From assembly GCA_032372955.1 (NCBI GenBank), contig GCA_032372955.1_4725.1: DNA of 64,000 bases; one strand, written 5' to 3'. The DNA is from Escherichia coli (GTDB taxonomy: Bacteria; Pseudomonadota; Gammaproteobacteria; Enterobacterales; Enterobacteriaceae). Below are positions 7,957-63,078 of this stretch, in pieces. A model generated the notes under the pieces. The model was given only the letters and a program-made list of their open reading frames with translations. It had not been told where the DNA came from and did no database searches. Both the position numbers and the translations under genes were made by a program. Each line of letters opens with the position of its first letter. The stretch's first letter is position 1.

Positions 7957-7971
7957 TCCGTGCACATAAAC

Positions 7972-7998
7972 AGCCCGCCCTTCGGGGTGGGCTTTATG
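7972..7998 (+). terminator. rho-independent-type hairpin (UUCG loop) followed by TTATGCTGTC
   Basis: agcccgccc-ttcg-gggtgggct, then ttatgctgtc. It lies 16 nt after the stop of gene 4570-7956. Confidence 0.7.
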
Positions 7999-8044
7999 CT
8001 GTCGACCATCATGTGATATCTTATCTTTCAAACAGGAATCTGCG

Positions 8045-13261: not shown

Positions 13262-13265
13262 TATT

Positions 13266-13297
13266 CCCTCTCCCTTCCCTTACGGGTTGGGAGAGGG
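13266..13297. terminator. conserved Y/R hairpin, copy 2
   Basis: ccctctcccttccc-ttac-gggttgggagaggg, then cttatgctgtc. Confidence 0.7.
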
Positions 13298-13331
13298 CTT
13301 ATGCTGTCTTATTTCGCATTACTCCAGTTTA

Positions 13332-13356
13332 TTTCGCGACTACATTACCTAGGTGA
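13332..13356 (+). promoter_or_regulatory. conserved 25-nt promoter-like motif, copy A
   Basis: TTTCGCGACTACATTACCTAGGTGA, located 35 nt after hairpin copy 2 and ~200 nt upstream of gene 13559. Confidence 0.55.
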
Positions 13357-14948: not shown

Positions 14949-15002
14949 CCCTCCTCCTTCCCTTACGGGTTGGAGGAGGGAACCGCACAATCTTTTTTTT
15001 TT
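14949..15002. terminator. conserved Y/R hairpin, copy 3, plus a T-run (bidirectional, between convergent genes)
   Basis: ccctcctccttccc-ttac-gggttggaggaggg. A T-run lies at 14992-15002. TTATG is on the minus-strand side (14943-14947). Confidence 0.7.
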
Positions 15003-15006
15003 GCGT

Positions 15007-16617
15007 TTAAAATTCTAAATCAAATTGTAATTCATTACTCGGTGCTGCGTTTTCATCGAACTTGTTCCACGGACCTTTACCTCCCTCGGAGACAGGTTGT
15101 CCGCCAACCTTGCGGCAATATACTGCTTTCTTACCGTAATCATCAGGAAGCATCCCGATGGTTTGGAATGGCATCGCGAAATGTTTGTCTTCAGGTTTCG
15201 TTGAACCGTTATCCGGTTGACGGTCTTTCCCTAATGCAAAGACCTGCCAGCTTTGACGTTTGCCGGGTTCCTTAACGATATCAACAATCACTTCAAGGTC
15301 AATCTCGCGGTCAATCCCTTTACAACCATCCCAGTAACTTAAACCTGCGACCTGGTCAACGAACTCTTCATCGTTACCATCACGTGCACGCATCTTCGCA
15401 TCGGATGACAGCTGGTGTACGGTCATGCCTAAAATACGTTTAACGCTGCAGAGGTTACGGACTTTGTTAAAGAGTTCTTGGAGCCATGCGCCGGTCGGCC
15501 CATTTCTATCCAGCCCTTCCGATGAGAACATTTTCAGATAGTCAATGAACAACGCCATGACTTCATAACCCATGCGTTCGAAATGGTCGATGAGATTAGC
15601 GAGTTGTTTATAACTCATCCCATCAACACGACGCATACAAACAGAGAAACCCGCATCATTGAACACCTTCAACACATAACGTGATGCCTCGCGAGGGTCA
15701 ATCTTACGAATATCGACATATTCGCCCGTTTCCTGTTCTCGCATGTTCTTGTATATTTGAAGCGTGTTTTCTTCCACTTCGTTTTCTGTCGACAAATGAA
15801 TCAGTAATGCTTTCTTTGCTCGCTCCGGAAAAAAGAAATGGGGTTTATTGTACAGTGCCAGATGCGTGAACAGTTTTAACAACACACCTGACTTGTTCCG
15901 GTGCTGCATCGCACCAATCAGTCCTAAGGTACCGCGACGTAAAACACCGACCGACCCCAACATTTTATTAAAACCTTGCCAGCCGGTTACAAACCCACCT
16001 TCAGGACTGTTACGTTCCATCGCTTTGACGAACATACGTTCAACTTTCTCGATATCGTCTTCACTGTCAGCGATAAAGCCGTCAATCATACACGACATCT
16101 CTTCGGGATTTTCGGTATCCATTTCGATACTGTCTAGCGATAATTTCAAATTCGCCATCGCATCGAAAAATTCTTTATCCCCAAGTCGCCCGTTACTGAT
16201 ATCCATGTACGTGTTTCTAAAGGTTTCGAAAACACGACGACGGGTAATCAGATTACGTAATTCGTTGTAATAGAGTGAACAGACCTTACTGATATGAGCG
16301 TCGTCTTCGATATCGTACAGTCCGTCGGCGAGAATCTCGTAAAGATTGCTTTGCTCAAGGCAATCTAAACGTATCCTTTGTAACAACTGTTGTTTATCGA
16401 AAGGTTCCGATAATGGTTGTTCCAACATCCAATGAATGGTATTCATCAGGTTGTTGAAAACCTCTCTATCTACGTCTGTAGCGAGATGGTTTTTCGGGGG
16501 TTCGACTTTATCTAAGACGGATTTAACATGTTCGATCGTACTGGGATCGGGATGGTTCAATTGTGCATTACGAAACAGTAACGTAATAATCTTAATGGCT
16601 ATCTGTTTTGGGTCCAT
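15007..16617 (-). CDS. DnaB-family / RecA-fold replicative helicase-like ATPase
   Basis: Motifs read by eye: GAMQHRNKSG (Walker A-like), MALFIDYL (Walker B-like) and VHQLSSDAKMR (DnaB H3/H4-like). I set the start at ATG 16617 (AAGGA upstream). The track's GTG at 16701 has no RBS and would overlap the divergent gene. Confidence 0.5.
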   Translation of the reverse strand: MDPKQIAIKIITLLFRNAQLNHPDPSTIEHVKSVLDKVEPPKNHLATDVDREVFNNLMNTIHWMLEQPLSEPFDKQQLLQRIRLDCLEQSNLYEILADGLYDIEDDAHISKVCSLYYNELRNLITRRRVFETFRNTYMDISNGRLGDKEFFDAMANLKLSLDSIEMDTENPEEMSCMIDGFIADSEDDIEKVERMFVKAMERNSPEGGFVTGWQGFNKMLGSVGVLRRGTLGLIGAMQHRNKSGVLLKLFTHLALYNKPHFFFPERAKKALLIHLSTENEVEENTLQIYKNMREQETGEYVDIRKIDPREASRYVLKVFNDAGFSVCMRRVDGMSYKQLANLIDHFERMGYEVMALFIDYLKMFSSEGLDRNGPTGAWLQELFNKVRNLCSVKRILGMTVHQLSSDAKMRARDGNDEEFVDQVAGLSYWDGCKGIDREIDLEVIVDIVKEPGKRQSWQVFALGKDRQPDNGSTKPEDKHFAMPFQTIGMLPDDYGKKAVYCRKVGGQPVSEGGKGPWNKFDENAAPSNELQFDLEF

Positions 16618-17277: not shown

Positions 17278-17393
17278 CGTAGGGAAAAGTTATGCGGCAT
17301 TTTTAGTGTTGTATCACGACCTCAATAACGGTAAGTGTTTACTGATACTATAGTGGCGCATGCACGCGTGTACGCTATGGTCTATCGACCGAC

Positions 17394-17415
17394 TTATATA
17401 AGTTAATTCTGTAAA
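17394..17415 (+). promoter_or_regulatory. capsid-gene upstream motif TTATATAAGTTAATTCTGTAAA
   Basis: It shares 13 of 14 nt with 46308-46321, and ends 11 nt before the capsid ATG. Confidence 0.35.
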
Positions 17416-17426
17416 GGATACTTTCA

Positions 17427-19649
17427 ATGAATGATAAAACCCTTCTTAGCCAACAGGTCGCGGCCACTCGCCAGTTCCTGACCGCTAATGGTAGCAAACC
17501 AGCAGACAAAGGTCTGGAGAACACCTTCCTGTCTATGGAATCTGCTTCTAAGGTTGATTTCAAATCCATGGACAAACTGGTTAACGAAATGGATGTTAAG
17601 AGCTTCAGCAGCGACATCCGTAAAGCAGAAGAACCGGTTCTGTCCATGCTGGGCTTCGAAACCACCACTCCGGAAGAGAAGCAGCGTATTGAAGAACAGC
17701 TGTTCACCATGAACGCACAGCAGGCTCGTGCAGCAGCACTGATCATGCTGGCTCATGGCAACCCGGTGGAATATGCTAAACAAGCACGTTCCATGAACAT
17801 CAGCACCACTCCGTCTGGCCGTGAAGTTGACAGCTCTAACTTCGTCATGATGGCCGCCGATTCCTGCGGTTGCGAATCTGAAGAACTGGTTCAGCTGTCC
17901 TACGACCAGAAAGAACTGCGTGACATGATGCCGTACTCCGTTGTGTTCAACGTGAAGGCTTCTCGTCTGAGCCGCATGGGTAACGAACTGTACAACACCA
18001 TCGTTCTGGCTCCGAACCAGATCGGTTACGACGTATCTTTCCGTCGTCCGCTGGTGTTCAACCACCTGCGTCGTAACGCTGACGGTACTCCGGCTGATTG
18101 GGTACGTCGTCCGCTGCTGGATGCGTTCATGTACAACGACGTTCTGTCCAACGACGTGACCGATCTGCATCCGATCTATCGTGCTGACGATGCTAACGCG
18201 CAGTACTTCGTTGACAAAACTATCGTTGCTCCGCGTGACATCGAAATTAAAGGCGTAACTTACAAAACGTCTTACCTGGCCGTTGATAAACTGATCGACA
18301 TGATCGGTATTGCTGAAGACGATAGCATCCTGGCTAACGGTTACAGCGACAACACCGACGCGCTGGACGCTCAGATCACGCTGACCAAAATCCTGGTGGA
18401 AATCAAATCCACCAAACACAGCAAAACCTCTTACGTACCGTTCGACGTATCTGGTCTGATCACCAACGGTTTCCAGAAATCCCTGGAAGGCGACTTCCGC
18501 AAAATGACCCTGGCGTTCGACACCCACTCCATCTTCGTTGATGAGAACACCGTTGACGTTAAAGGTGCACGAGCTGAAGCGCTGCAGGACATCATCGATT
18601 CGAAATCCGCTGCTCAGCTGGCAATCGAAGTTTACGGTTCTTCCAACGTAGAGAAAGCCGGTCTGCGTGTTAACGGCGCTAACGCTGAACTGTATCGTCT
18701 GGTCGATCGTGACAACATCGAACAACCGCGTAAGGGCGAAGAGTTCAAACAGCTGGCTGAAGACCTGAGCTTCAAACTGGTTGGTTACGAACTGCGTATC
18801 CGCCGTAACAACAGCAACCGTCGTGAGCGTGGTAAGCACCTTGACTTCAACATGAAGCAAGAACGTTACGCAATCGGCCTGCTGGCTCCGTTCTCCATTC
18901 CTCGTCCGCTGGATTGGGAAGAAAACGCTGCTGACCTGGACGTTCTGATCCAAGCTGCTAACGCACGTTTCGACAACCTGATGGTTGAGAAACTGTTCAG
19001 CTACAAAGACGCACTGAAAGCGGTTGCGACCTCTCGCTTCCGTCAGTTCGGCGACATCCAGATCGAAGGTTTCGGTCGTTACCTGATCCGTCCGTGGTTC
19101 GAAGAAATCAATCTGGACCTGGAGAAATCTGTTCAGGGTACCACCACTGCAGAACGTCGTGCTGAAGTGTCCGCTGCGATCATGAACGTGATTCGTGAGA
19201 TGGCATACCGCATGTACTCCGAGTCTGGTTATCAGCCAGCTCTGCAGCTGCTGTCTTCCAACGCTGATGAGAAACCGCGTTGCGTAGTAGCAACTGACAA
19301 CTACATCCCGCAGTTCCTGCAGACCGATGGCGATTTCCGTACCGTTGGTGTGAGCTTCAACTTCGTGGTTGTAGATAACCCGAACGTCATGCTGCGCGAT
19401 AAGATCTTCGTGACCCTGTCTCGTGGTATCCAGGGTTCTCCGGATCCGCTGACCTTCGGTATGTTCCTGTATGTACCGGAACTGGTATCTGTTGCTCAGG
19501 TTACCCGTAACGGTCAGGTTTCTAAAGAAACCATGGTTCAGCCGCGCTGCCGCTTCGTTAACAACTGCCCGCTGCTGGGTCTGATTAACGTTGTGAACCT
19601 GCGTAAGGTCTACACTGAAAACATCAAGCTGCCTGTTCAGACTAACTGA
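17427..19649 (+). CDS. putative major capsid protein (giant-phage size class)
   Basis: 740 aa. It has the strongest host-like codon optimisation in the window (CTG, CGT, GGT, AAC, TTC, GAA dominate), which implies very high expression. As I recall, the size matches phiKZ-class capsid proteins (~750 aa). It has its own upstream motif and a strong hairpin at 19749-19778. Confidence 0.6.
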   Translation: MNDKTLLSQQVAATRQFLTANGSKPADKGLENTFLSMESASKVDFKSMDKLVNEMDVKSFSSDIRKAEEPVLSMLGFETTTPEEKQRIEEQLFTMNAQQARAAALIMLAHGNPVEYAKQARSMNISTTPSGREVDSSNFVMMAADSCGCESEELVQLSYDQKELRDMMPYSVVFNVKASRLSRMGNELYNTIVLAPNQIGYDVSFRRPLVFNHLRRNADGTPADWVRRPLLDAFMYNDVLSNDVTDLHPIYRADDANAQYFVDKTIVAPRDIEIKGVTYKTSYLAVDKLIDMIGIAEDDSILANGYSDNTDALDAQITLTKILVEIKSTKHSKTSYVPFDVSGLITNGFQKSLEGDFRKMTLAFDTHSIFVDENTVDVKGARAEALQDIIDSKSAAQLAIEVYGSSNVEKAGLRVNGANAELYRLVDRDNIEQPRKGEEFKQLAEDLSFKLVGYELRIRRNNSNRRERGKHLDFNMKQERYAIGLLAPFSIPRPLDWEENAADLDVLIQAANARFDNLMVEKLFSYKDALKAVATSRFRQFGDIQIEGFGRYLIRPWFEEINLDLEKSVQGTTTAERRAEVSAAIMNVIREMAYRMYSESGYQPALQLLSSNADEKPRCVVATDNYIPQFLQTDGDFRTVGVSFNFVVVDNPNVMLRDKIFVTLSRGIQGSPDPLTFGMFLYVPELVSVAQVTRNGQVSKETMVQPRCRFVNNCPLLGLINVVNLRKVYTENIKLPVQTN

Positions 19650-19748
19650 ACTACCGTAGCTGCTTCGTTGGACGATATTCTTGACGACAACGTTGCGGAT
19701 GGTTTCATTGCACCGGACATTCATCCGGCACCGTGATACATAAGTCAG

Positions 19749-19778
19749 CCTCCCTCAGCCCGTAAGGGTTGGGGGAGG
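19749..19778. terminator. conserved Y/R hairpin, copy 4 (fully paired variant), after the capsid gene
   Basis: cctccctcagccc-gtaa-gggttgggggagg, then tttctatgccgt. Confidence 0.7.
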
Positions 19779-19811
19779 TTTCTATGCCGTTTACGTTGTG
19801 AATAGAAAAAA

Positions 19812-19836
19812 TTTGACGCTTACATTACCTAGGTGA
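19812..19836 (+). promoter_or_regulatory. conserved 25-nt promoter-like motif, copy B
   Basis: TTTGACGCTTACATTACCTAGGTGA, located 34 nt after hairpin copy 4 and ~150 nt upstream of gene 19986. Confidence 0.55.
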
Positions 19837-31680: not shown

Positions 31681-32616
31681 GTGAGTGATACGGTAACAAC
31701 TATTGACGACACCGAACTTTACCCGGTCGACGTCTCTTTACCCTCATCCGATCTCGTGTATGGTCTTATCAACCACGATAACCCACCTCAGAACGGAGAG
31801 CATGTTCTAACCCCTGAATTATTGGTTTTAGGAACACCAACCACCAACCAAAGCGCCTACGAGCGCGACACCCAGATTACGGCGACAGCAACCGCTAAGC
31901 TTACCGAGTTGGACGATTATGAAGGTTCGACGACGCTGTATTACGATCGTATTAACATCGGTGCGTATCTGCGTAACGTAGCGCCTATTCTTATCGATGC
32001 GCCAGACGCCGCCAAGATGCGTGATATCTGGCCTATCATCAAAGAACGTTTCGGTCTTGGCCTTACCGCGGAAGAAATCGTCAACGACGAACTTAACTGG
32101 GATACCGTTAACGGACAATTGCTTCGTGTCGCATCTAACTGCCTGGCTTGGACGGGGAGCGTTCGTATCTTGATGAAGTCGCGTGTACCGAATCTTGATG
32201 ATATTATCGCGATCAAGGAGCTGGACGGCCTTAAGTTCTTCGGTCAAGGCGTACGCGCTAGCGGCGAGATTTACAGTTACAGCCGTGATACTTCTGATTA
32301 CGGTGAACTGCTGGCTTCGCTGGTAACAGGTACCGTTATTAGCGATGTGGTGGTTGCCGATCTTCTGGCTGAAATGACTACCGATCGTTGGGTATTAGAC
32401 GACAACGCCGCACCGTATAACCTGTATAATGCTAAAGTGGCTTTCAACGGTGAGTTAGGCGGACGTATTCCAGCAAGAGCAGGTTACCAATACGGTATCG
32501 AGATCAGTCTGGATGAAAACTACTGTACTGCCGTTGGCGGTCCATTGATTTTCTATTACAATGTCGACGGACATACCGCAAGCCTCCAGGGTCGTTCTCC
32601 AGAAGAACAAGGCTAA
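31681..32616 (+). CDS. paralog family B protein (virion/fibre-associated candidate)
   Basis: GTG start 6 nt after GAGGAGG. Family motifs: YYDRINIGAYL, LAWTGSVRILMKS and a C-terminal YCTAVGGPLIFYYNV. Confidence 0.55.
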   Translation: MSDTVTTIDDTELYPVDVSLPSSDLVYGLINHDNPPQNGEHVLTPELLVLGTPTTNQSAYERDTQITATATAKLTELDDYEGSTTLYYDRINIGAYLRNVAPILIDAPDAAKMRDIWPIIKERFGLGLTAEEIVNDELNWDTVNGQLLRVASNCLAWTGSVRILMKSRVPNLDDIIAIKELDGLKFFGQGVRASGEIYSYSRDTSDYGELLASLVTGTVISDVVVADLLAEMTTDRWVLDDNAAPYNLYNAKVAFNGELGGRIPARAGYQYGIEISLDENYCTAVGGPLIFYYNVDGHTASLQGRSPEEQG

Positions 32617-32626
32617 GGAATAAACA

Positions 32627-33478
32627 ATGAGTCAGAAATTGTTAAACAAAAGTCCTAAAGTACTGGTCGCTGAACTTATTCAGGCAGCCAATCCTGACTT
32701 CGACTTTAACTTCGATGCAATTGATATCACGGATGTTGCTGAAAACGGAAACCACGCGTATAAACGGAACACGCGCGCTAAGGTATCGCCTTCGGCAACA
32801 GTAACACCAGCACAATACCGTGAAAGCAGCTACGTGTGGTACGATCGTATCCCTATCCAAGACTTCTTCTTGGGGATGGAACCGAAGCTTGCTATCGATG
32901 CCGGGGTTAAAACGACGCACGATCTTATCCCTCTGATTCAATCAACGTACGGAATCGTTATCGATCAGGATAGCTGCGTCGATTCTCCGATCGTACGAGG
33001 CGATGAATATCCGTTCCCGCACACCGTAGAATTGAAAACCACCGGATTGGCTTGGACGGGAAGTGTTACGTTCTATCTCCTCGATAGTGCCCACGATATT
33101 GCGGGGATGATGAAGACTTCGGTGATGACCGGTCTCAATTTCCCGTACTACACCGCAAATCGTATCCAGGCATTGGTCTACAGTTACGCCATAGACTGTA
33201 CAGCGATCCGTTCCGATCTCGCCGGATTAAAAGTTGGCGGTAACTTAAGCGCACTGGTTAGCTTATTCAACAACGTTGCGCCAACCCCGTGGGTTTATAA
33301 CGGCCGTGAAGACGAAAACAACCTTTACGGAGCCACCGTGCTTGCAACCGGTAAAACAACAGAACTTATCGCACAGGGTTATCCTGTTAACCCGGCGTTC
33401 GCTAACGCTGTCATCGTTACGCTTAGCCAAGATTACTGCACGAACTACGGCGGTATCCTGTTGATGCAATATAACTGA
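32627..33478 (+). CDS. paralog family B protein
   Basis: AAGGAA RBS. Family motifs: WYDRIPIQDFF, LAWTGSVTFYLLD and YCTNYGGILLMQYN. Confidence 0.55.
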   Translation: MSQKLLNKSPKVLVAELIQAANPDFDFNFDAIDITDVAENGNHAYKRNTRAKVSPSATVTPAQYRESSYVWYDRIPIQDFFLGMEPKLAIDAGVKTTHDLIPLIQSTYGIVIDQDSCVDSPIVRGDEYPFPHTVELKTTGLAWTGSVTFYLLDSAHDIAGMMKTSVMTGLNFPYYTANRIQALVYSYAIDCTAIRSDLAGLKVGGNLSALVSLFNNVAPTPWVYNGREDENNLYGATVLATGKTTELIAQGYPVNPAFANAVIVTLSQDYCTNYGGILLMQYN

Positions 33479-34394: not shown

Positions 34395-35300
34395 ATGGAG
34401 TACAGTGAAATCCTAGGGTTAGAATCGAAAGAAATCCTCTTTCGGCTGATTCGAAAGCATAGCGATTTCGATGCTCGAGGCGTAACGCTGGATAAACTGG
34501 TTATCGGTGAGGCTTCTGAAAGCACAGGGTACAAGCGTAACAGCAAGTTAACCGTGCATCCCCAGCCGGGTTCAGGGCTGGTGAACTCTGTCGACATCTA
34601 TTATAACCGCATCGATCTTGGTAAACTGGGTACTTGGCCTGGCGGACAGCACCACTGGCCCGTCGAGATCGAAACCTTAGATGCGCTAACCAAGGTCTCT
34701 GAGATCCTACCTGTCTTAGCATCGACGTACGGTATCCTTCTCAACAAAACCGAGATTGTCGACGCAGATCTGGATAAGTCCAAGTCACCGATACAGGTTG
34801 TGATAACACCTAAACCCGGTAACCAAGTATGGGTTGGTCAGTTACTTGTCGAGTTAACTTCAGGACATAATGACCTCAACAACCTCGTTCGCAACAATAT
34901 GTTGGCTGGGTTGAATTATATCATCGATCGAGATAGCAGTAAACTCCCGGGCGCTATTGTTTCGTACAACTGGTTCGTATCTGCTGGTGTTCTGGCGTCA
35001 CTTACCGATGGTTATACGTTAACCTCAGGTGATACGCAATCGGAGGCACTAATCGCAGAAATGAACATGCTGCAATTGGGTCTCTCTGAAGAGATCGACG
35101 GCCTTATGGTCAACGATCGCTGGGTATTGTCAGCAATACCTGGACCACTCAACTTGCAGAATGCGAGAGTAATAGCCGATCCAGAGCAATTCAAAACACT
35201 ACCGTTTGGCGTGCGTACGGATGTTAGTAAAGCCGTCGTACTTCAACTTAGTGTGATGAATACGCTCATCGATGGTTATCTAACGCTATATGTAGCATAA
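34395..35300 (+). CDS. paralog family B protein
   Basis: Family motifs: YYNRIDLGKLG, VWVGQLLVELTS and a C-terminal LIDGYLTLYVA. It is followed by the hairpin at 35310-35341. Confidence 0.55.
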   Translation: MEYSEILGLESKEILFRLIRKHSDFDARGVTLDKLVIGEASESTGYKRNSKLTVHPQPGSGLVNSVDIYYNRIDLGKLGTWPGGQHHWPVEIETLDALTKVSEILPVLASTYGILLNKTEIVDADLDKSKSPIQVVITPKPGNQVWVGQLLVELTSGHNDLNNLVRNNMLAGLNYIIDRDSSKLPGAIVSYNWFVSAGVLASLTDGYTLTSGDTQSEALIAEMNMLQLGLSEEIDGLMVNDRWVLSAIPGPLNLQNARVIADPEQFKTLPFGVRTDVSKAVVLQLSVMNTLIDGYLTLYVA

Positions 35301-44752: not shown

Positions 44753-45388
44753 ATGGCTAAGATTACTGAAAAAGATTTTACCTGCGAATTCATCATTCGC
44801 GACAAAACCGATGTTGAAGGTGGGTATATTGATGACCCGGATGACAGCGGGAAATGTACAAACCACGGCATCACGCAAGCGCTTGCTAATCAATACAAAA
44901 CCACGCTGAAAACGAAATTCGGCTGGAACGGTAACATGCGTAACCTTACCACGGAAATGGCGTTCTTTATCTACAAGACTCATTTCTGGGATAAGATGAA
45001 GCTTGACGAAGTCATGAAACGTTCTGTGTTCTTAGCTGACCGTCTCTTTGACCTGGGTATCAATGCAGGTAAAACGGTTGCGGTTAAGAACCTTCAGCGT
45101 TACCTGAACGTCATGAACAACCGTCAAACTTACTGGAAAGATATCAACGCCGACGGTTTGATGGGACCTGCGACGTTAGGCGTACTCGACGCTTACATCG
45201 CTAAACGCGGAGAAACCGGTAAAGATTATCTCATCGACGCGATGCTAGATATGCAGAGCACTTACTACATCGAATTAGCTGAACGTCGTGAGAAAGACGA
45301 GAAGTTCATTTACGGTTGGCAGGCACGTAAACGTCGTGAGCGTAAGCGTTATGAAGCGATCATCTTGAACGGGTTCAGTGCTGAGTAA
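44753..45388 (+). CDS. endolysin, GH108-type muramidase with a C-terminal peptidoglycan-binding domain
   Basis: The N-terminal VEGGYIDDPDDSGKCTNHGITQ matches the GH108 EGGY...GG.TN.GIT motif. NADGLMGPATLGVLDAYI resembles a PG_binding_3 domain. GAGGAG RBS. Confidence 0.8.
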   Translation: MAKITEKDFTCEFIIRDKTDVEGGYIDDPDDSGKCTNHGITQALANQYKTTLKTKFGWNGNMRNLTTEMAFFIYKTHFWDKMKLDEVMKRSVFLADRLFDLGINAGKTVAVKNLQRYLNVMNNRQTYWKDINADGLMGPATLGVLDAYIAKRGETGKDYLIDAMLDMQSTYYIELAERREKDEKFIYGWQARKRRERKRYEAIILNGFSAE

Positions 45389-45451
45389 AACCCTGCCGTA
45401 AACCGTCATAAAACGCTCCAGAACGAACGGAACGCATAAAGACGTATAAGA

Positions 45452-45483
45452 CCCCTCCTCACCCAATAACGGATGAGGAGGGG
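45452..45483. terminator. conserved Y/R hairpin, copy 7 (divergent variant with a larger loop)
   Basis: cccctcctca...tgaggagggg, a 10-bp perfect stem. It lies between the endolysin and the convergent gene 45683-46225. Confidence 0.55.
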
Positions 45484-45682
45484 CTTAACAGGTGTTCGTG
45501 TTTATTCAGGTTGGTCTGGGTCCCTGGCCGCTTGAGGAGATCCACAACCCTTTCAACACCACGCTTCATACGAAGCGCTCAATGAGAAAGATAAGCGTGC
45601 AACCACGCAGATTGTTACAACCAAATTGTAGAAGAGCAATAGCCGAGCTGTACAAAACCCATACTATTGCTCTTTATGCTTA

Positions 45683-46225
45683 TTAGCCAACAACGCTAAC
45701 GGTCGGTTTCACGAAGCCATCAGCTACGTTATCCGCCAGAACGGTTGCCAGGTCATCTTTCGGTGCAGCTGCGTAGGTCAGTGCAACCTGCAGAGTGCCG
45801 GTATATACCAGGCCATTCTCGATCGCATTCAGAGTTACCTGACCAACAGTACCTGCAGACAGCTGGAAGGTTTCTTCATTGATTTCACCGGTCAGGGAAG
45901 CCAGACCGAATTTGGTGACCAGCTTGCTTACCAGCTCGGAAGCCTTAATGCTGTCGGTACCGTGCGGCAGTTCGAAAGTAACATCGCCAGTTACATCAGC
46001 GAAAACTTCGGACAGAGCCAGACGATCGTAGTAGAACTGCTGAGTACCCTGCAGGTTAGCTGCTTCAGCTGCAGCATCCAGCTGAATAACGGTGTTCTTT
46101 TCATGTTCGGAAGACGTCTGCGGAGTACCGAACTGCAGTTCTTCTTCGGTCAGCGTGCGGGTTGCTTTGGTGTTGATAAGATCAAGCAGAAGGGATTTCG
46201 CTGCTTTGTTAAAGTCTAAGGCCAT
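45683..46225 (-). CDS. abundant short paralog of family B (N-terminal domain only)
   Basis: I set the start at ATG 46225 (GAGG upstream); the track start at 46324 lies in AT-rich promoter DNA. Family motifs: FYYDRLALSEVF and LVYTGTLQVALTY. Its codon usage is as optimised as the capsid gene. Confidence 0.65.
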   Translation of the reverse strand: MALDFNKAAKSLLLDLINTKATRTLTEEELQFGTPQTSSEHEKNTVIQLDAAAEAANLQGTQQFYYDRLALSEVFADVTGDVTFELPHGTDSIKASELVSKLVTKFGLASLTGEINEETFQLSAGTVGQVTLNAIENGLVYTGTLQVALTYAAAPKDDLATVLADNVADGFVKPTVSVVG

Positions 46226-46286
46226 GATAATGTGTCCTCTGATTTTTGATGGTCGAAAAGGAGATTCGGAGTCGTTCTCCATAATA

Positions 46287-46321
46287 TTTACATTAATATA
46301 AAATATATTAATTTCTGTAAA
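46287..46321. promoter_or_regulatory. AT-rich, near-symmetric divergent promoter candidate between genes 45683-46225 (-) and 46367-47260 (+)
   Basis: tttacattaatata-aaa-tatattaatttctgtaaa. Each strand reads TATATTAAT(n0-3)TGTAAA. The plus-strand half (TTAATTTCTGTAAA) matches TTAATTCTGTAAA upstream of the capsid gene. Confidence 0.4.
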
Positions 46322-46366
46322 CACTTACATCTTTTGAGAGTGATGTAACAACCATAGAGGTAGAAA

Positions 46367-47260
46367 ATGGCAACTCAAGTTTCGCTTACTTTAAAAACAC
46401 CTTGGCAACTTATCGTTGATGAGATTAACAAACTCAACGCCGACACTGGTGCCAGCTTCCAATACACCGACCTTAAATACGTTCTTAAAGAAAAGAATCC
46501 TTCTGCTCCAGAAGCAACTTTAACGCTTAGCCCTGGTGATGGTACCCCTTACTTCAATAACCGTGATGTTACCTACCATCGTCTGGATCTGGCTAAATGG
46601 TTCCAGAAAATCGCTGTACGTGTTAACGTTACTGCTGACACCACCATCGGTGATGTGGTTGACCTTGTAGCTCAACGCTACGGTATGATCACACCGACCG
46701 GTGAGAAGTTCCTGGATAAAGATAAAGACATCAAAGCCGATACGTTATCTAATCCGGTTACCTTCAACGAGCATGGTATCCAGACGATCACCCTGGAAGC
46801 TAAAGAAGATTCGTTGGCGTGGTACGGCTCTGTTCAAGTTAAAGTTTATAACACCACGCTGGATCTGGCTAACATCATCAAGGTTACCAATCTGGGTAAC
46901 TTAACCTACGTTGATGAAGGCGACGGCACCAAAACGTCAGCACGTCTGTTAACCTATCCGTTAGACTTCAGTACTTACACCGCAGGTTTACAAGCTATTA
47001 CCAGCAACGATACCAAGATCGATGCAGGCTTAGCAGGTAACCTGACTACCCTGATCAAAGAGCAGACTGGTGTAAGTGATGATATCATCAATGAACTGAA
47101 AACCAATCTGCAAACAGCTACCTTTGTCTATAACGGTGCTACCACCGGGTCTACTGACAAAGGTGTTAACGCTACGTACAGCAATGTGCTGGTGCTGTCG
47201 TTAGCTGACGGTACTCACACCTACGGTAAAGCAGTATTCGGTTATAACGTTTCCGAATAA
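46367..47260 (+). CDS. paralog family B protein
   Basis: AGAGG RBS. Family motifs: TYHRLDLAKWF, LAWYGSVQVKVYN and a C-terminal HTYGKAVFGYNV. It is followed by the hairpin at 47277-47308. Confidence 0.6.
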   Translation: MATQVSLTLKTPWQLIVDEINKLNADTGASFQYTDLKYVLKEKNPSAPEATLTLSPGDGTPYFNNRDVTYHRLDLAKWFQKIAVRVNVTADTTIGDVVDLVAQRYGMITPTGEKFLDKDKDIKADTLSNPVTFNEHGIQTITLEAKEDSLAWYGSVQVKVYNTTLDLANIIKVTNLGNLTYVDEGDGTKTSARLLTYPLDFSTYTAGLQAITSNDTKIDAGLAGNLTTLIKEQTGVSDDIINELKTNLQTATFVYNGATTGSTDKGVNATYSNVLVLSLADGTHTYGKAVFGYNVSE

Positions 47261-47276
47261 TTTTAATTAATCTCTC

Positions 47277-47308
47277 CCTTCCTCCTTCCCTGTTGGGTTG
47301 GAGGAAGG
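47277..47308. terminator. conserved Y/R hairpin, copy 8
   Basis: ccttcctccttccc-tgtt-gggttggaggaagg, then tttatg. It marks the end of the structural block, just before the ORF-free region. Confidence 0.7.
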
Positions 47309-47399
47309 TTTATGTTTGTGATTATTCTTCTCTTTTATAATTTCTAATGATAAGATTAAGTACCTGGAGTAAAAGTTTACAGATGTTGTAAATGTATTT

Positions 47400-47740
47400 G
47401 GAAAGTAAAATTTCCACGACCTCGGCCCCTTCGGGGGACGGGGGAGGAGCGAAGTCCTTTAGAGACGAGCAACAGGATAACTCTAAGAAAAAGAAAAACT
47501 AAACGAGCGAAGCGAGTTTATGTTTTTATCCTTAGAGTTATCAAGCTATAAGCGTAGCGTTAGCGTATAACGGTTATGTCGTATACGAATGCAATGAGTA
47601 TAGACGAGATACTCTGATGAACAACGTGAAGAAGAGTATCACAAATGTTTTTTGAGTTATCCGGATTTAACTAGCATGTAACGAAGTGTAATGCACAGAT
47701 GACATGTGTTACCGTTAAGGTAGTAAACACATGTTATCCA
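47400..47740 (+). ncRNA. candidate structured-RNA region (array of stem-loops); strand and function unknown
   Basis: The hairpins are: 47420-47443 (10 bp, cUUCGg loop); 47476-47542 (12-bp perfect outer stem gataactctaag/cttagagttatc with an inner imperfect stem); 47579-47607; 47608-47640 (gatactct/agagtatc); and 47702-47734 (acatgtgtt/aacacatgt). There is no ORF of 60 aa or more on either strand. Confidence 0.3.
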
Positions 47741-47990
47741 TTGTTTTGAAGATAAGCTTATTAACTTACTTTTAAATCAATTTAAATATACAAACAACTT
47801 AAACATACCAAGATAAAACAATTGAACCTAAGATAAACAAGATAACTTAGACAATACACTTTTAACGAATACAGATAACATCTTACTTAAATCAAAATAC
47901 CTATCCTCGTTTACCTTCCTTGCTTGCAACACCTCTTCTAAATCCATCCCTTCTTAAGAAACAACAAAACCCTTACTGTAACACAAATCC
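47741..47990. repeat. AT-rich non-coding segment with AGATAA/GATAAC iterons and a CTTACTT(TT)AAATCAA direct repeat
   Basis: AGATAA occurs at 47750, 47811, 47831, 47840 and 47873. The direct repeats are at 47765-47780 and 47882-47895. Confidence 0.5.
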
Positions 47991-48015
47991 TTTCACGACT
48001 ATATTACCTAAGTGA
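47991..48015 (+). promoter_or_regulatory. conserved 25-nt promoter-like motif, copy C
   Basis: TTTCACGACTATATTACCTAAGTGA, located 82 nt upstream of gene 48098. Confidence 0.55.
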
Positions 48016-48097
48016 TGCGTACGTACGATGTTCGTATTGCGTCAAATAGAACTCAATACGTTGTTTAATTAACGTGAAAAACAGAGGAACTTTTTAA

Positions 48098-50089: not shown

Positions 50090-50533
50090 ATGGAAATTAA
50101 ATTCTGTAAATCGATCGCGATTGTACCTGAACAACCTGCGGATGATCTCGAAAAGCTCGATCATCCCACACTGCAACATGCGCTGGAACGTTTAGCCTCT
50201 TTTGCGCCGTTAGAGAATCATCTTCACTGCGTTAATCTTGAAGCATCCGACTTCGACGTGAAGCTTGGGTTCGTGTTTTCACAAACGGGGAAGGATGTGT
50301 TAGAAAACATATTCTGGTCTGCTGAGCATAAGGCGAGAAATGTGATGACGAAGTTAGTTTATAACGTTAGCCTTAGTGAAGACGGCACCTATTGGACGTC
50401 AGAGGCTTGCTGGACGATTTCTGCGATTTCACGAATGGACAAAATACACTATTTGCATCGTGTTGCTGATAGCATTGTACACCAACTGGATCGTTTTGAT
50501 ACCACCCGCTTATCGAATGGAACACAGTGTTAA
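50090..50533 (+). CDS. small tandem-family protein
   Basis: AGAGGA RBS. VKLGFVFSQTGKDVLENIFW aligns with the P2 and P3 motif. Confidence 0.55.
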   Translation: MEIKFCKSIAIVPEQPADDLEKLDHPTLQHALERLASFAPLENHLHCVNLEASDFDVKLGFVFSQTGKDVLENIFWSAEHKARNVMTKLVYNVSLSEDGTYWTSEACWTISAISRMDKIHYLHRVADSIVHQLDRFDTTRLSNGTQC

Positions 50534-60492: not shown

Positions 60493-60517
60493 TTTTCACG
60501 GCTATATTACTTAAGTG
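60493..60517 (+). promoter_or_regulatory. conserved 25-nt promoter-like motif, copy D
   Basis: TTTCACGGCTATATTACTTAAGTGA, located 24 nt upstream of ORF 60542. Confidence 0.55.
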
Positions 60518-60541
60518 AAGTAAGCCAGCGAGATTTCAATC

Positions 60542-63026: not shown

Positions 63027-63040
63027 GCTTGACGGCATAA

Positions 63041-63072
63041 CCCTCCTCCAACCCAACAGGGAAGGAGGAGGG
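63041..63072. terminator. conserved Y/R hairpin, copy 11 (inverted orientation, A:A type)
   Basis: ccctcctccaaccc-aaca-gggaaggaggaggg. TTATGCCGTC is on the minus flank (63031-63040) and AATATG on the plus flank. Confidence 0.7.
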
Positions 63073-63078
63073 AATATG

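Follow-up and report, generated by a model that had tools for sequence, protein, structure and literature searches.

A codon-optimized short-form DUF7941 gene in Goslar-like phage DNA, its divergent spacer, and a tail motif recurring behind the capsid-gene stop codon

Introduction

The virion of Escherichia phage vB_EcoM_Goslar, a nucleus-forming jumbo phage, has been estimated to hold ~2,140 copies of gp23, 2,150 of gp58, and 580 of gp22, vs 1,615 capsid proteins, and gp23, which is described as gp22 minus its C-terminal domain, is the most abundant protein of that virion to have been left unmodelled, with gp214 also listed among the most abundant of the unmodelled proteins (bioRxiv 10.64898/2026.04.21.720040). 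Here, we analyze a 64,000-nucleotide (nt) stretch of DNA from an assembly filed under Escherichia coli (contig GCA_032372955.1_4725.1; this whole stretch is referred to as the window), and within it a gp23-like gene on the minus strand, the spacer separating it from a divergent gp22-like gene, and the 3' end of the capsid gene. An earlier reading of the window, referred to below as the original prediction, regarded the gp23-like gene as a truncated, very highly expressed paralog of its neighbor and the spacer as a symmetric AT-rich promoter containing a 14-mer shared by the most abundant late proteins. It is clear from our results that the observation was largely correct, that both the gene and its abundance had been documented in Goslar, and that the promoter hypothesis, with its symmetric palindrome and shared 14-mer, is not supported. 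As the ortholog of a protein family described in 2026, the gene without the promoter idea adds little by itself, and the most interesting outcome is a tail motif that gp23 has in common with the UGA-gated extension behind the capsid gene, which lies outside the coordinates considered originally.

For the DUF7941 proteins, the family of gp22 and gp23, the published model has the linker or tail of one subunit docking on the following subunit's N-terminal domain, and the resulting head-to-tail filaments are proposed to form a 'fiber cloud' fixed at the peripheral baseplate; copy numbers were obtained by label-free mass spectrometry, and oligomerization was addressed with AlphaFold 3 and negative stain of gp22 (bioRxiv 10.64898/2026.04.21.720040). 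Chimalliviruses transcribe their genomes with their own virion and non-virion RNA polymerases, independently of the host polymerase (PMC7598289). The late promoters of phiKZ, which are recognized by the non-virion polymerase, are defined by TATG with the G at +1, and they also need downstream sequence, for which no consensus is known (PMC7598289, PMC12809450).

The gene is a conserved short form of the DUF7941 family

A 2-kb query around the gene found Goslar as its sole match in the phage collection, at 93.5% nucleotide identity over the full length. Judged by this identity and by the Pfam PhiKZ_MCP match in the capsid gene product, the DUF7941 genes reside in a nucleus-forming (chimallin-encoding) jumbo phage, and the window is Goslar-like chimallivirus DNA (Chimalliviridae), with window position w corresponding to approximately Goslar 63088 minus w on the opposite strand. 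In Goslar, gp23 (HOV27_gp023) and gp22 are divergent like the window pair, and both are annotated as 'virion structural protein'.

The gp23-like protein is 91% identical in amino acid sequence to Goslar gp23. Its match to Pfam DUF7941 (PF25613; 77.8 bits, cut-off 27, E=1.2e-21) runs through residues 5-175 and covers positions 4-174 of the 276 in the profile, in agreement with the original prediction that a 180-amino-acid (aa) gene at this place carries only the N-terminal domain of its family. The gp22-like protein matches the same profile over positions 4-275 with 173 bits, so that the two are indeed paralogs, with a pairwise identity of 24% over ~100 aa. To call the gene truncated is nevertheless misleading. 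Residues 3-172 align to positions 5-174 of PHROG 2935 (E=1.7e-21), and because that profile is itself only 180 positions long, the short forms, of which we collected 34 with lengths of 123-184 aa and to which phiKZ gp126 also belongs, are a conserved subfamily rather than a one-off truncation.

Structure prediction for the gp23-like protein with AlphaFold2, from 24 homologs, gave a model with a mean local confidence (pLDDT) of 88.6 and a predicted template-modeling score (pTM) of 0.77. With this model as the query, Foldseek retrieved the N-terminal domain of phiKZ gp127 (PDB 9xqd_0; E=4.8e-7, probability 1.00, template-modeling scores 0.62/0.73) and no other credible match, the next hit having E=0.06. 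The gp22-like protein matches the same chain (PDB 9xqd chain 0, PHIKZ127, outer peripheral baseplate) by phmmer (E=9.8e-7). The gp23-like gene is the ortholog of Goslar gp23 and a short form of the chimallivirus-specific DUF7941 virion protein family, which also takes in the gp22 neighbor and phiKZ gp126 and gp127.

The protein closes with a conserved tail of ~25 residues, whose motif (Table 1) is among the best-conserved stretches in 24 gp23 homologs, down to 44% identity, with L159, V162, A168, G170, F171, and P174 invariant; contig MAVE01000539 was left out of the protein comparison, its apparent 63% identity being the result of frameshift errors. One relative, IMGVR_UViG_3300011560_000001, has a gp23 allele that is only 52% identical, while its sampled capsid-gene segments are 99-100% identical to the window; in this allele, the first 30 residues and the tail are kept, and the divergence sets in within the 5' leader at ~46255. 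From these alleles, gp23 appears to be swapped or diversified as a cassette, as expected of an exposed protein.

Codon usage singles out the most abundant phage proteins

With weights derived from 30 genes of E. coli K-12 for ribosomal proteins and elongation factors, the codon adaptation index (CAI) is 0.798 for the capsid gene, 0.734 for the gp23-like gene, and 0.578 for the gp22-like gene, against a mean of 0.413 (standard deviation [sd] 0.095) for 56 open reading frames (ORFs) in the window. The gp23-like gene is therefore 3.4 sd above the mean, and its host-like codon bias is second only to that of the capsid gene, as originally noticed. The 247 annotated genes of Goslar have a mean of 0.386 (sd 0.089) and include five outliers, gp41 (0.80), gp58 (0.79), gp23 (0.73), gp214 (0.73), and gp246, chimallin (0.70), after which the next gene falls to 0.58; all five are known abundant proteins.

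The step from codon bias to very high expression is right and is already in the literature for the Goslar ortholog, as the copy number of gp23 attests. The gene is codon-optimized to the level of the capsid gene because its product belongs to a small top group of phage proteins by abundance, with each Goslar virion holding ~2,100 copies. By itself, the CAI selects gp41, gp58, gp23, gp214, and chimallin, the same few proteins that rank as most abundant in studies of virions and infected cells, and it can therefore serve as a cheap predictor for uncharacterized chimalliviruses. The Goslar preprint mentions neither codon bias, nor promoters, nor a tail motif shared with the capsid gene (bioRxiv 10.64898/2026.04.21.720040).

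Two conserved leader blocks and a candidate late promoter in the spacer

The spacer between the divergent genes (46226-46366) has the predicted length of 141 nt and is 70% A+T. Its alignment across ten Goslar-like genomes from GenBank, IMG/VR, and metagenomes (eight full-length, one cut off, and one with a deletion) resolves it into a gp23-side block, an AT-rich core, and a gp22-side block (Table 1). The core is the least conserved part, with 10 of 30 columns variable (0.33) vs 7 of 58 (0.12) and 8 of 53 (0.15) in the two flanks, where the changes fall mostly beside the start codons, and it also carries indels, including a 7-nt insertion. Invariant in all relatives are CCATA at 46279-46283 (TATGG when read on the gp23 strand) and, in the gp22-side block, TCTGTAAA, always followed by A at 46322; the imperfect hairpin of this block pairs TTACATC with GATGTAA (46325-46331 and 46342-46348). 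In IMG/VR genome 3300011560, where divergence starts from ~46255, positions 46256-46283 are identical despite the replaced gp23 allele and proximal leader, and TATGGAGAACGACTCCGAATCTCC is unchanged. There is an upstream in-frame ATG at 46282, and since a 1-nt indel breaks the frame in relatives, the region is a leader rather than coding sequence. A low-coverage metagenomic contig, ERZ1664509 NODE-109, has an 88-nt deletion equivalent to window 46267-46354 with GAG microhomology at its edges; lost with it are the TATG, TTCTGTAAA, the leader hairpin of gp22, and the AT core in full, and the contig represents either a true deletion variant or an artefact of assembly.

On the gp23 strand, the TATG, with its G 55 nt upstream of the start codon, marks the edge between the variable core and the conserved block, and by analogy with phiKZ, the gp23 promoter is most likely a late initiator of the TATG type with its start at G 46280. 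The spacer would then comprise two back-to-back transcription units, each conserved leader block running from a start codon to the edge of the AT core. For gp23, the non-virion RNA polymerase would initiate at G 46280 of the TATG; for gp22, the conserved block begins at TCTGTAAAC, and its strand contains no TATG within the spacer, with TCTG in its place. We consider it probable that these elements belong together as one account, namely a DUF7941 short-form ortholog whose codon bias is driven by abundance, transcribed from one of two back-to-back units with a TATG late start. The conserved TATG block also gives this phage group a defined late-promoter candidate.

A possible downstream feature was found in Goslar, where 10 of 90 sense intergenic TATGs are followed, from +1 or +2, by an inverted repeat that is perfect over 4 bp or more, compared with a baseline of 5.2% of intergenic G positions (p=0.018). 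The genes concerned are gp7, gp23, gp30, gp41, gp88, gp146, gp156, gp161, gp214, and gp218, mostly encoding abundant virion proteins, and in the window, the capsid gene is likewise preceded by a TATG with a hairpin from +1 (17376-17390). An inverted repeat at +1 may thus act as the 'downstream determinant' of late promoters, which we offer as a lead only. The excess of intergenic TATG on the sense strand (64 vs 41) is not promoter evidence, because it consists mostly of the phiKZ-type terminator motif, a hairpin followed by TTATGCYGT.

Several points weigh against the account given above. The TATG assignment rests on the phiKZ analogy, as there is no start map for any Goslar-like phage, and phiKZ P119L, when checked, had no hairpin at +1. 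The TATG-plus-hairpin criterion was set after the examples had been seen, and shuffled sequence folds as well as the predicted gp23 leader does (z = -0.4). Half of the divergent promoter model is left unexplained by the lack of a TATG on the gp22 side. For the protein, the virion location and polymerization of gp23 rest on the AlphaFold predictions of the preprint and on negative-stain images of gp22 only. Finally, the similarity between the spacer and the capsid-gene upstream region described below, together with the invariant TCTGTAAA, may reflect a shared functional element of some kind.

The near-palindrome and the shared 14-mer

The original prediction saw in the spacer a near-palindrome (46287-46321) acting as a symmetric divergent promoter, and in the 14-mer TTAATTTCTGTAAA within it a possible promoter or UP-like element of the most abundant late proteins. 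Part of this description holds. The TGTAAA arms are present on both strands, and the three copies of the motif are where they were said to be, the last one inside the start of ORF 50090. The near-palindrome is asymmetric, however, reading TATATTAA-TTTC-TGTAAA on the plus strand and TATATTAA-TGTAAA on the minus strand, with the right arm 4 bases longer, and its self-complementarity is equalled by 73 of 1000 dinucleotide shuffles of the spacer, that is, at chance level. Across nine relatives, otherwise almost identical in sequence, TTCACA, TTCATA, or TTTATA can stand for the left arm, TTTACA (minus-strand TGTAAA), and CTGAT (the Goslar form), GTAAT, TTGAT, TGAAT, or TTAAA for the TTAAT half of the 14-mer. 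With the palindrome at chance and the AT core the least conserved part of the spacer, the symmetric promoter finds no support. A related proposal, in which a dimeric phage regulator would bind the imperfect palindrome as its operator and so co-ordinate gp22 and gp23 expression, could appeal to the divergent gene pair with its central inverted repeat (ATTAATATA...TATATTAAT), yet it meets the same chance-level score, its arms are mutated or split by the 7-nt insertion in relatives, and one low-coverage metagenomic contig lacks the whole core through its 88-nt deletion; we regard it as highly improbable.

The distribution of the 14-mer is mixed. With up to three mismatches, it is not enriched in the window (7 found vs 8.4 expected), although its 9-mer core TTCTGTAAA is mildly over-represented (3 copies vs 0.55 expected, a count reached in 2 of 100 shuffles). 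The 237-kb Goslar genome contains seven copies of the core, one each in the gp22/gp23 spacer, ahead of the capsid gene, ahead of a homing endonuclease gene, and within the early gene gp17, and three at antisense or coding sites. Four of the seven copies are thus in coding or antisense positions, one of them in an early gene, and the core is absent upstream of Goslar gp58, gp214, gp88, gp158, gp53, and the sheath gene, which does not fit an element shared by the most abundant late proteins; on the gp23 strand, it is missing in several relatives. The copy at 50097 is coding sequence, because ORF 50090 has a good Shine-Dalgarno sequence upstream, and the operon of this ORF comes after the early-promoter-like motif at 47999.

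More favorable to a promoter role are the invariance of TCTGTAAA and the local similarity between the gp22-side spacer and the capsid upstream region (ATATA..TTAAT.TCTGTAAA), which only 4 of 1000 shuffles reach, the pair having been chosen post hoc among ~thirty intergenic regions; moreover, a start at the G of TCTG would leave a Shine-Dalgarno sequence on both the capsid and the gp22 mRNAs. The capsid upstream region itself gives no footprint, because it is 100% conserved in four genomes. A scan of 45300-47500 for sigma-70 promoters (-35/-10 hexamers with 16-18 nt spacing) gave no promoter-like site in 46226-46366, and because chimalliviruses transcribe with their own polymerases (PMC7598289), a host UP element would have no reader. 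On balance, we judge it improbable that the near-palindrome and 14-mer make up a promoter of the kind proposed, and on the comparisons made here, they are, as such, not specific regulatory elements.

A third possibility is that an AU-rich UAUA..UUAAUUCUGUAAA acts at the RNA level as a leader or translation enhancer ahead of the ribosome-binding site in mRNAs with very high translation, those of the capsid gene, gp22, and, in a variant form, gp58, rather than as a DNA promoter signal. AU-rich leaders enhance translation in E. coli, which speaks for this idea in general terms. The capsid-gene copy overlaps the Shine-Dalgarno sequence, its last base lying 11 nt ahead of the ATG; in Goslar gp58, whose codon optimization ranks second, the related TTATTGTAAAGGAAAC (UUAUUGUAAAGGAAAC as RNA) has the same spacing from the ATG, and UGUAAA adjoins the Shine-Dalgarno sequence in gp61 and gp29. 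This placement at the capsid gene and gp58 suggests a role in translation initiation better than it does a promoter. The geometry is unlike this at gp22, however, where the element lies 46 nt from the ATG with a hairpin between them, and gp23, the most abundant of the three, has no such element beside its ribosome-binding site; the instances are also too few for statistics, and we consider an enhancer of this sort unlikely.

As a separate observation, the ribosome-binding region of the two most codon-optimized genes (window 17410-17426, and upstream of Goslar gp58 at ~65092-65120 on the minus strand) is extended to TGTAAAGGA(T/A)AC in both and stands at the same distance from the ATG, and the start region of phiKZ gp119 has a similar GGTACTTTCACAATG.

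A candidate readthrough tail behind the capsid-gene stop codon

The capsid ORF ends ...KLPVQTN-TGA-A and continues in frame as an extension closed by a second TGA (19650-19736); the terminator hairpin follows only after that. The extension carries the gp23 tail motif DNVADGF, the gp23-like protein ending ...APKDDLATVLADNVADGFVKPTVSVVG. Six-frame searches of the window and of the complete Goslar genome each gave exactly two occurrences of NVADGF, one in the gp23 tail and one in the capsid extension, both 15 residues before a stop. Local alignment of the extension with the gp23 tail scores 55-61, compared with 33-47 for the best matches of 60 shuffled peptides against the whole genome. The seven codons shared by the two tails differ at four positions, all synonymous, and across 13 Goslar-like genomes the TGA is invariant and all three polymorphic sites in the extension are synonymous third positions. 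The locus therefore combines a UGA with an in-frame extension under protein-level conservation.

In Erwinia phage RAY and Salmonella phage SA002, a C-terminal tail stands at the same position within the capsid ORF itself (e.g., ...IPVATGDLAANIATAVLDGLNAQPKP). Among 15 capsid 3' ends from IMG/VR, nine encode the tail as part of the capsid protein, with TAA as the stop (RAY-like and SA002-like loci and one other), three are Goslar-like loci with TGA-A, and three loci of two further lineages have the tail motif in frame behind TGA (Table 1). The phiKZ capsid gene was not counted, because the open in-frame stretch after its stop is without the motif. A predicted fold downstream of the capsid UGA, with a stem starting at the stop codon, reached only z = -1.6 and was not used as evidence. 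The extension is unannotated in Goslar and absent from the text of the structure preprint (bioRxiv 10.64898/2026.04.21.720040), and we found no paper on it.

UGA is the leakiest stop codon in E. coli; the stop codons of Goslar comprise 175 TAA, 60 TGA, and 12 TAG. The simplest reading of the sequence pattern is programmed UGA readthrough making a minor capsid isoform, with a recently silenced relic as the alternative, and we think it rather more likely than not that the candidate readthrough is both real and functional. If so, it would be the first programmed stop-codon readthrough in a jumbo-phage capsid gene.

The shared motif leads to a proposal about where gp23 resides. Some ribosomes would read through the capsid UGA in Goslar-like phages and in at least two other chimallivirus lineages, which would add a 28-residue tail mimicking the docking tail of gp23 (DNVADGF; general motif [VL]xDG[LF]xxxP). 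As the C-terminal arms of the capsid protein form a beta-barrel at each hexon centre, the rare tails would project from the hexon centres, and since a DUF7941 tail docks on an N-terminal domain in the preprint model, we infer that the capsid tail could recruit gp23 or gp22 to these positions. Such tails would anchor or nucleate the ~2,000-copy DUF7941 polymer on the capsid, not just at six baseplate sites, and the RAY-like and SA002-like phages, with a tail on every capsid subunit, would be the constitutive version. This full statement, from the readthrough tail to the capsid anchoring of the polymer, is tentative and may well fail as a whole. Its interest lies in the fact that the preprint proposal for ~2,100 gp23 copies needs micron-long filaments emanating from six sites, whereas a tail motif shared by gp23 and the UGA-gated capsid extension provides a concrete alternative for the location of gp23 on the virion.

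Other features of the window

Upstream of blocks of small genes, the window contains a motif, yTAyATTACyTArGTGA (CTAyATTACyTArGTGA), preceded by TTTCnCG, which also has eight strict-core matches in Goslar, including ones upstream of chimallin (gp246) and gp214. Early promoters of chimalliviruses are conserved AT-rich motifs of ~10-17 nt, and we take this motif for the probable early promoter, read by the virion RNA polymerase, of phages in this group. Reading TATATTAAT in the spacer as such an early promoter was rejected, as the spacer is without the 3' half of the motif and shares only TATATTA with it.

Many genes are followed by G+C-rich hairpins (CCTCCTTCCC-loop-GGGTTGGAGGAGG) and then T-rich sequence with TATGCYGT, which match the conserved phiKZ terminator motif ...GGBYTTATKYYGT (PMC10914365). 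An inverted repeat, AGAGCAATAG...CTATTGCTCT, with TTATGC after it, comes directly past the stop codon of gp23, in the gap where the endolysin gene and gp23 converge; the repeat may be a bidirectional terminator, with a long loop of ~21 nt. Between gp22 and the next operon lies an 837-nt A+T-rich (65%) stretch (47261-48097) that ends at the early-promoter-like motif and has no ORF of at least 50 aa on either strand, no Rfam match, and no tRNA; it is unannotated in Goslar too (14972-15825). Rfam and tRNA scans of the whole window gave no matches.

Table 1. Coordinates of the features discussed, in window numbering, and related loci
Feature	Position	Strand	Remarks
gp23-like coding sequence	45683..46225	-	180 aa; globular N-terminal DUF7941 domain followed by a C-terminal tail; codon usage extremely E. 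coli-like
gp22-like coding sequence, full-length DUF7941 paralog	46367..47260	+	297 aa
Further DUF7941 family members	34395-35300, 32627-33478, 32017-32616		
Conserved tail motif DLATVLADNVADGFVKP	45704..45757	-	Residues 157-174 of the gp23-like protein; includes DNVADGF
gp23-side conserved block	46226..46283	-	Candidate late start TATG 46283-46280, with G+1 at 46280; small hairpin GGAGAACGACUCC from +1; 55-nt leader; Shine-Dalgarno GAGGA 46239-46235
Variable AT-rich core	46284..46313		Between the divergent units; holds most of the near-palindrome 46287-46321
gp22-side conserved block	46314..46366	+	TCTGTAAA 46314-46321; imperfect hairpin; Shine-Dalgarno GAGG 46357-46360
Spacer copy of the 14-mer TTAATTTCTGTAAA	46308-46321	+	Located exactly where originally predicted
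Capsid-gene motif copy TTAATTCTGTAAA	17403..17415	+	Overlaps the ribosome-binding site (AAGGA 17414-17418, ATG 17427)
Third motif copy TTAAATTCTGTAAA	50097..50110	+	Codons 3-7 of ORF 50090 (gp17-like)
Candidate readthrough tail of the capsid gene	19647..19736	+	Stop TGA-A, then 28 in-frame sense codons TTVAASLDDILDDNVADGFIAPDIHPAP, then TGA
IMG/VR loci L051, L052			Capsid core closed by TGA-C, then LGTVIRNRVLDGLHATPFE
IMG/VR locus L053			Capsid core closed by TGA-A, then SDSLFTKYKLDGFKRVDS
TATG with inverted repeat at +1 (scan)	G+1 at 17379, 46280, 36705, 59321	+, -, -, -	
Early-type motif	13340-13356, 19820-19836, 47999-48015, 60502-60518	+	Four window matches, none in the spacer
Terminator-type hairpins (examples)	2020-2065, 7970-8001, 13265-13306, 19750-19789, 47272-47315, 63033-63075(-)		
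Inverted repeat, possible bidirectional terminator	45633-45676		Directly past the gp23 stop

Comparison with known systems

The closest described counterpart is the gp23/gp22 pair of Goslar, whose members are direct orthologs of the window genes in the same divergent arrangement, separated by a spacer that is 96-98% identical, and there too, gp23 consists of the N-terminal domain and linker, to which gp22 adds a C-terminal domain. The window nevertheless derives from a separate isolate or metagenomic genome, as its 93.5% nucleotide identity indicates, and the right arm of the palindrome, for instance, is TATATTAAT in the window but TATACTGAT in Goslar.

The more distant phiKZ pair, gp126 (147 aa) and gp127 (290 aa), shares with the window pair the family, the fold, and the pairing of a short form with a long form, and the N-terminal domain of gp127, on which the model of the window protein superposes, has been modelled in the outer peripheral baseplate (PDB 9xqd). 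The phiKZ genes differ in being in tandem on one strand rather than divergent, the tail of gp126 ends ...IPVTLEFESS without the VxDGF motif, and no copy number like that of gp23 is reported for them in the sources covered. The candidate gp23 promoter resembles the late promoters of phiKZ in that the TATG is invariant in relatives and the conserved sequence lies downstream of it, just as downstream sequence matters in phiKZ; it differs in the inverted repeat at +1, which phiKZ P119L does not have, in the TCTG on the gp22 side, and in that the start here is predicted from sequence.

For the capsid gene, the nearest parallels come from other phages. The A1 protein of Q-beta is a readthrough product of a leaky UGA at the end of the coat gene, and the 10A and 10B proteins of T7 arise by a frameshift in the capsid gene. 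The putative isoform described here would resemble these in being a minor form of the capsid protein that recoding produces where the major capsid gene ends, in this case at a UGA. Unlike them, it would belong to a 240-kb double-stranded DNA jumbo phage, is predicted from the sequence, and would have an extension of only 28 residues, and this extension, in a further departure from both precedents, resembles the docking tail of another virion protein family.

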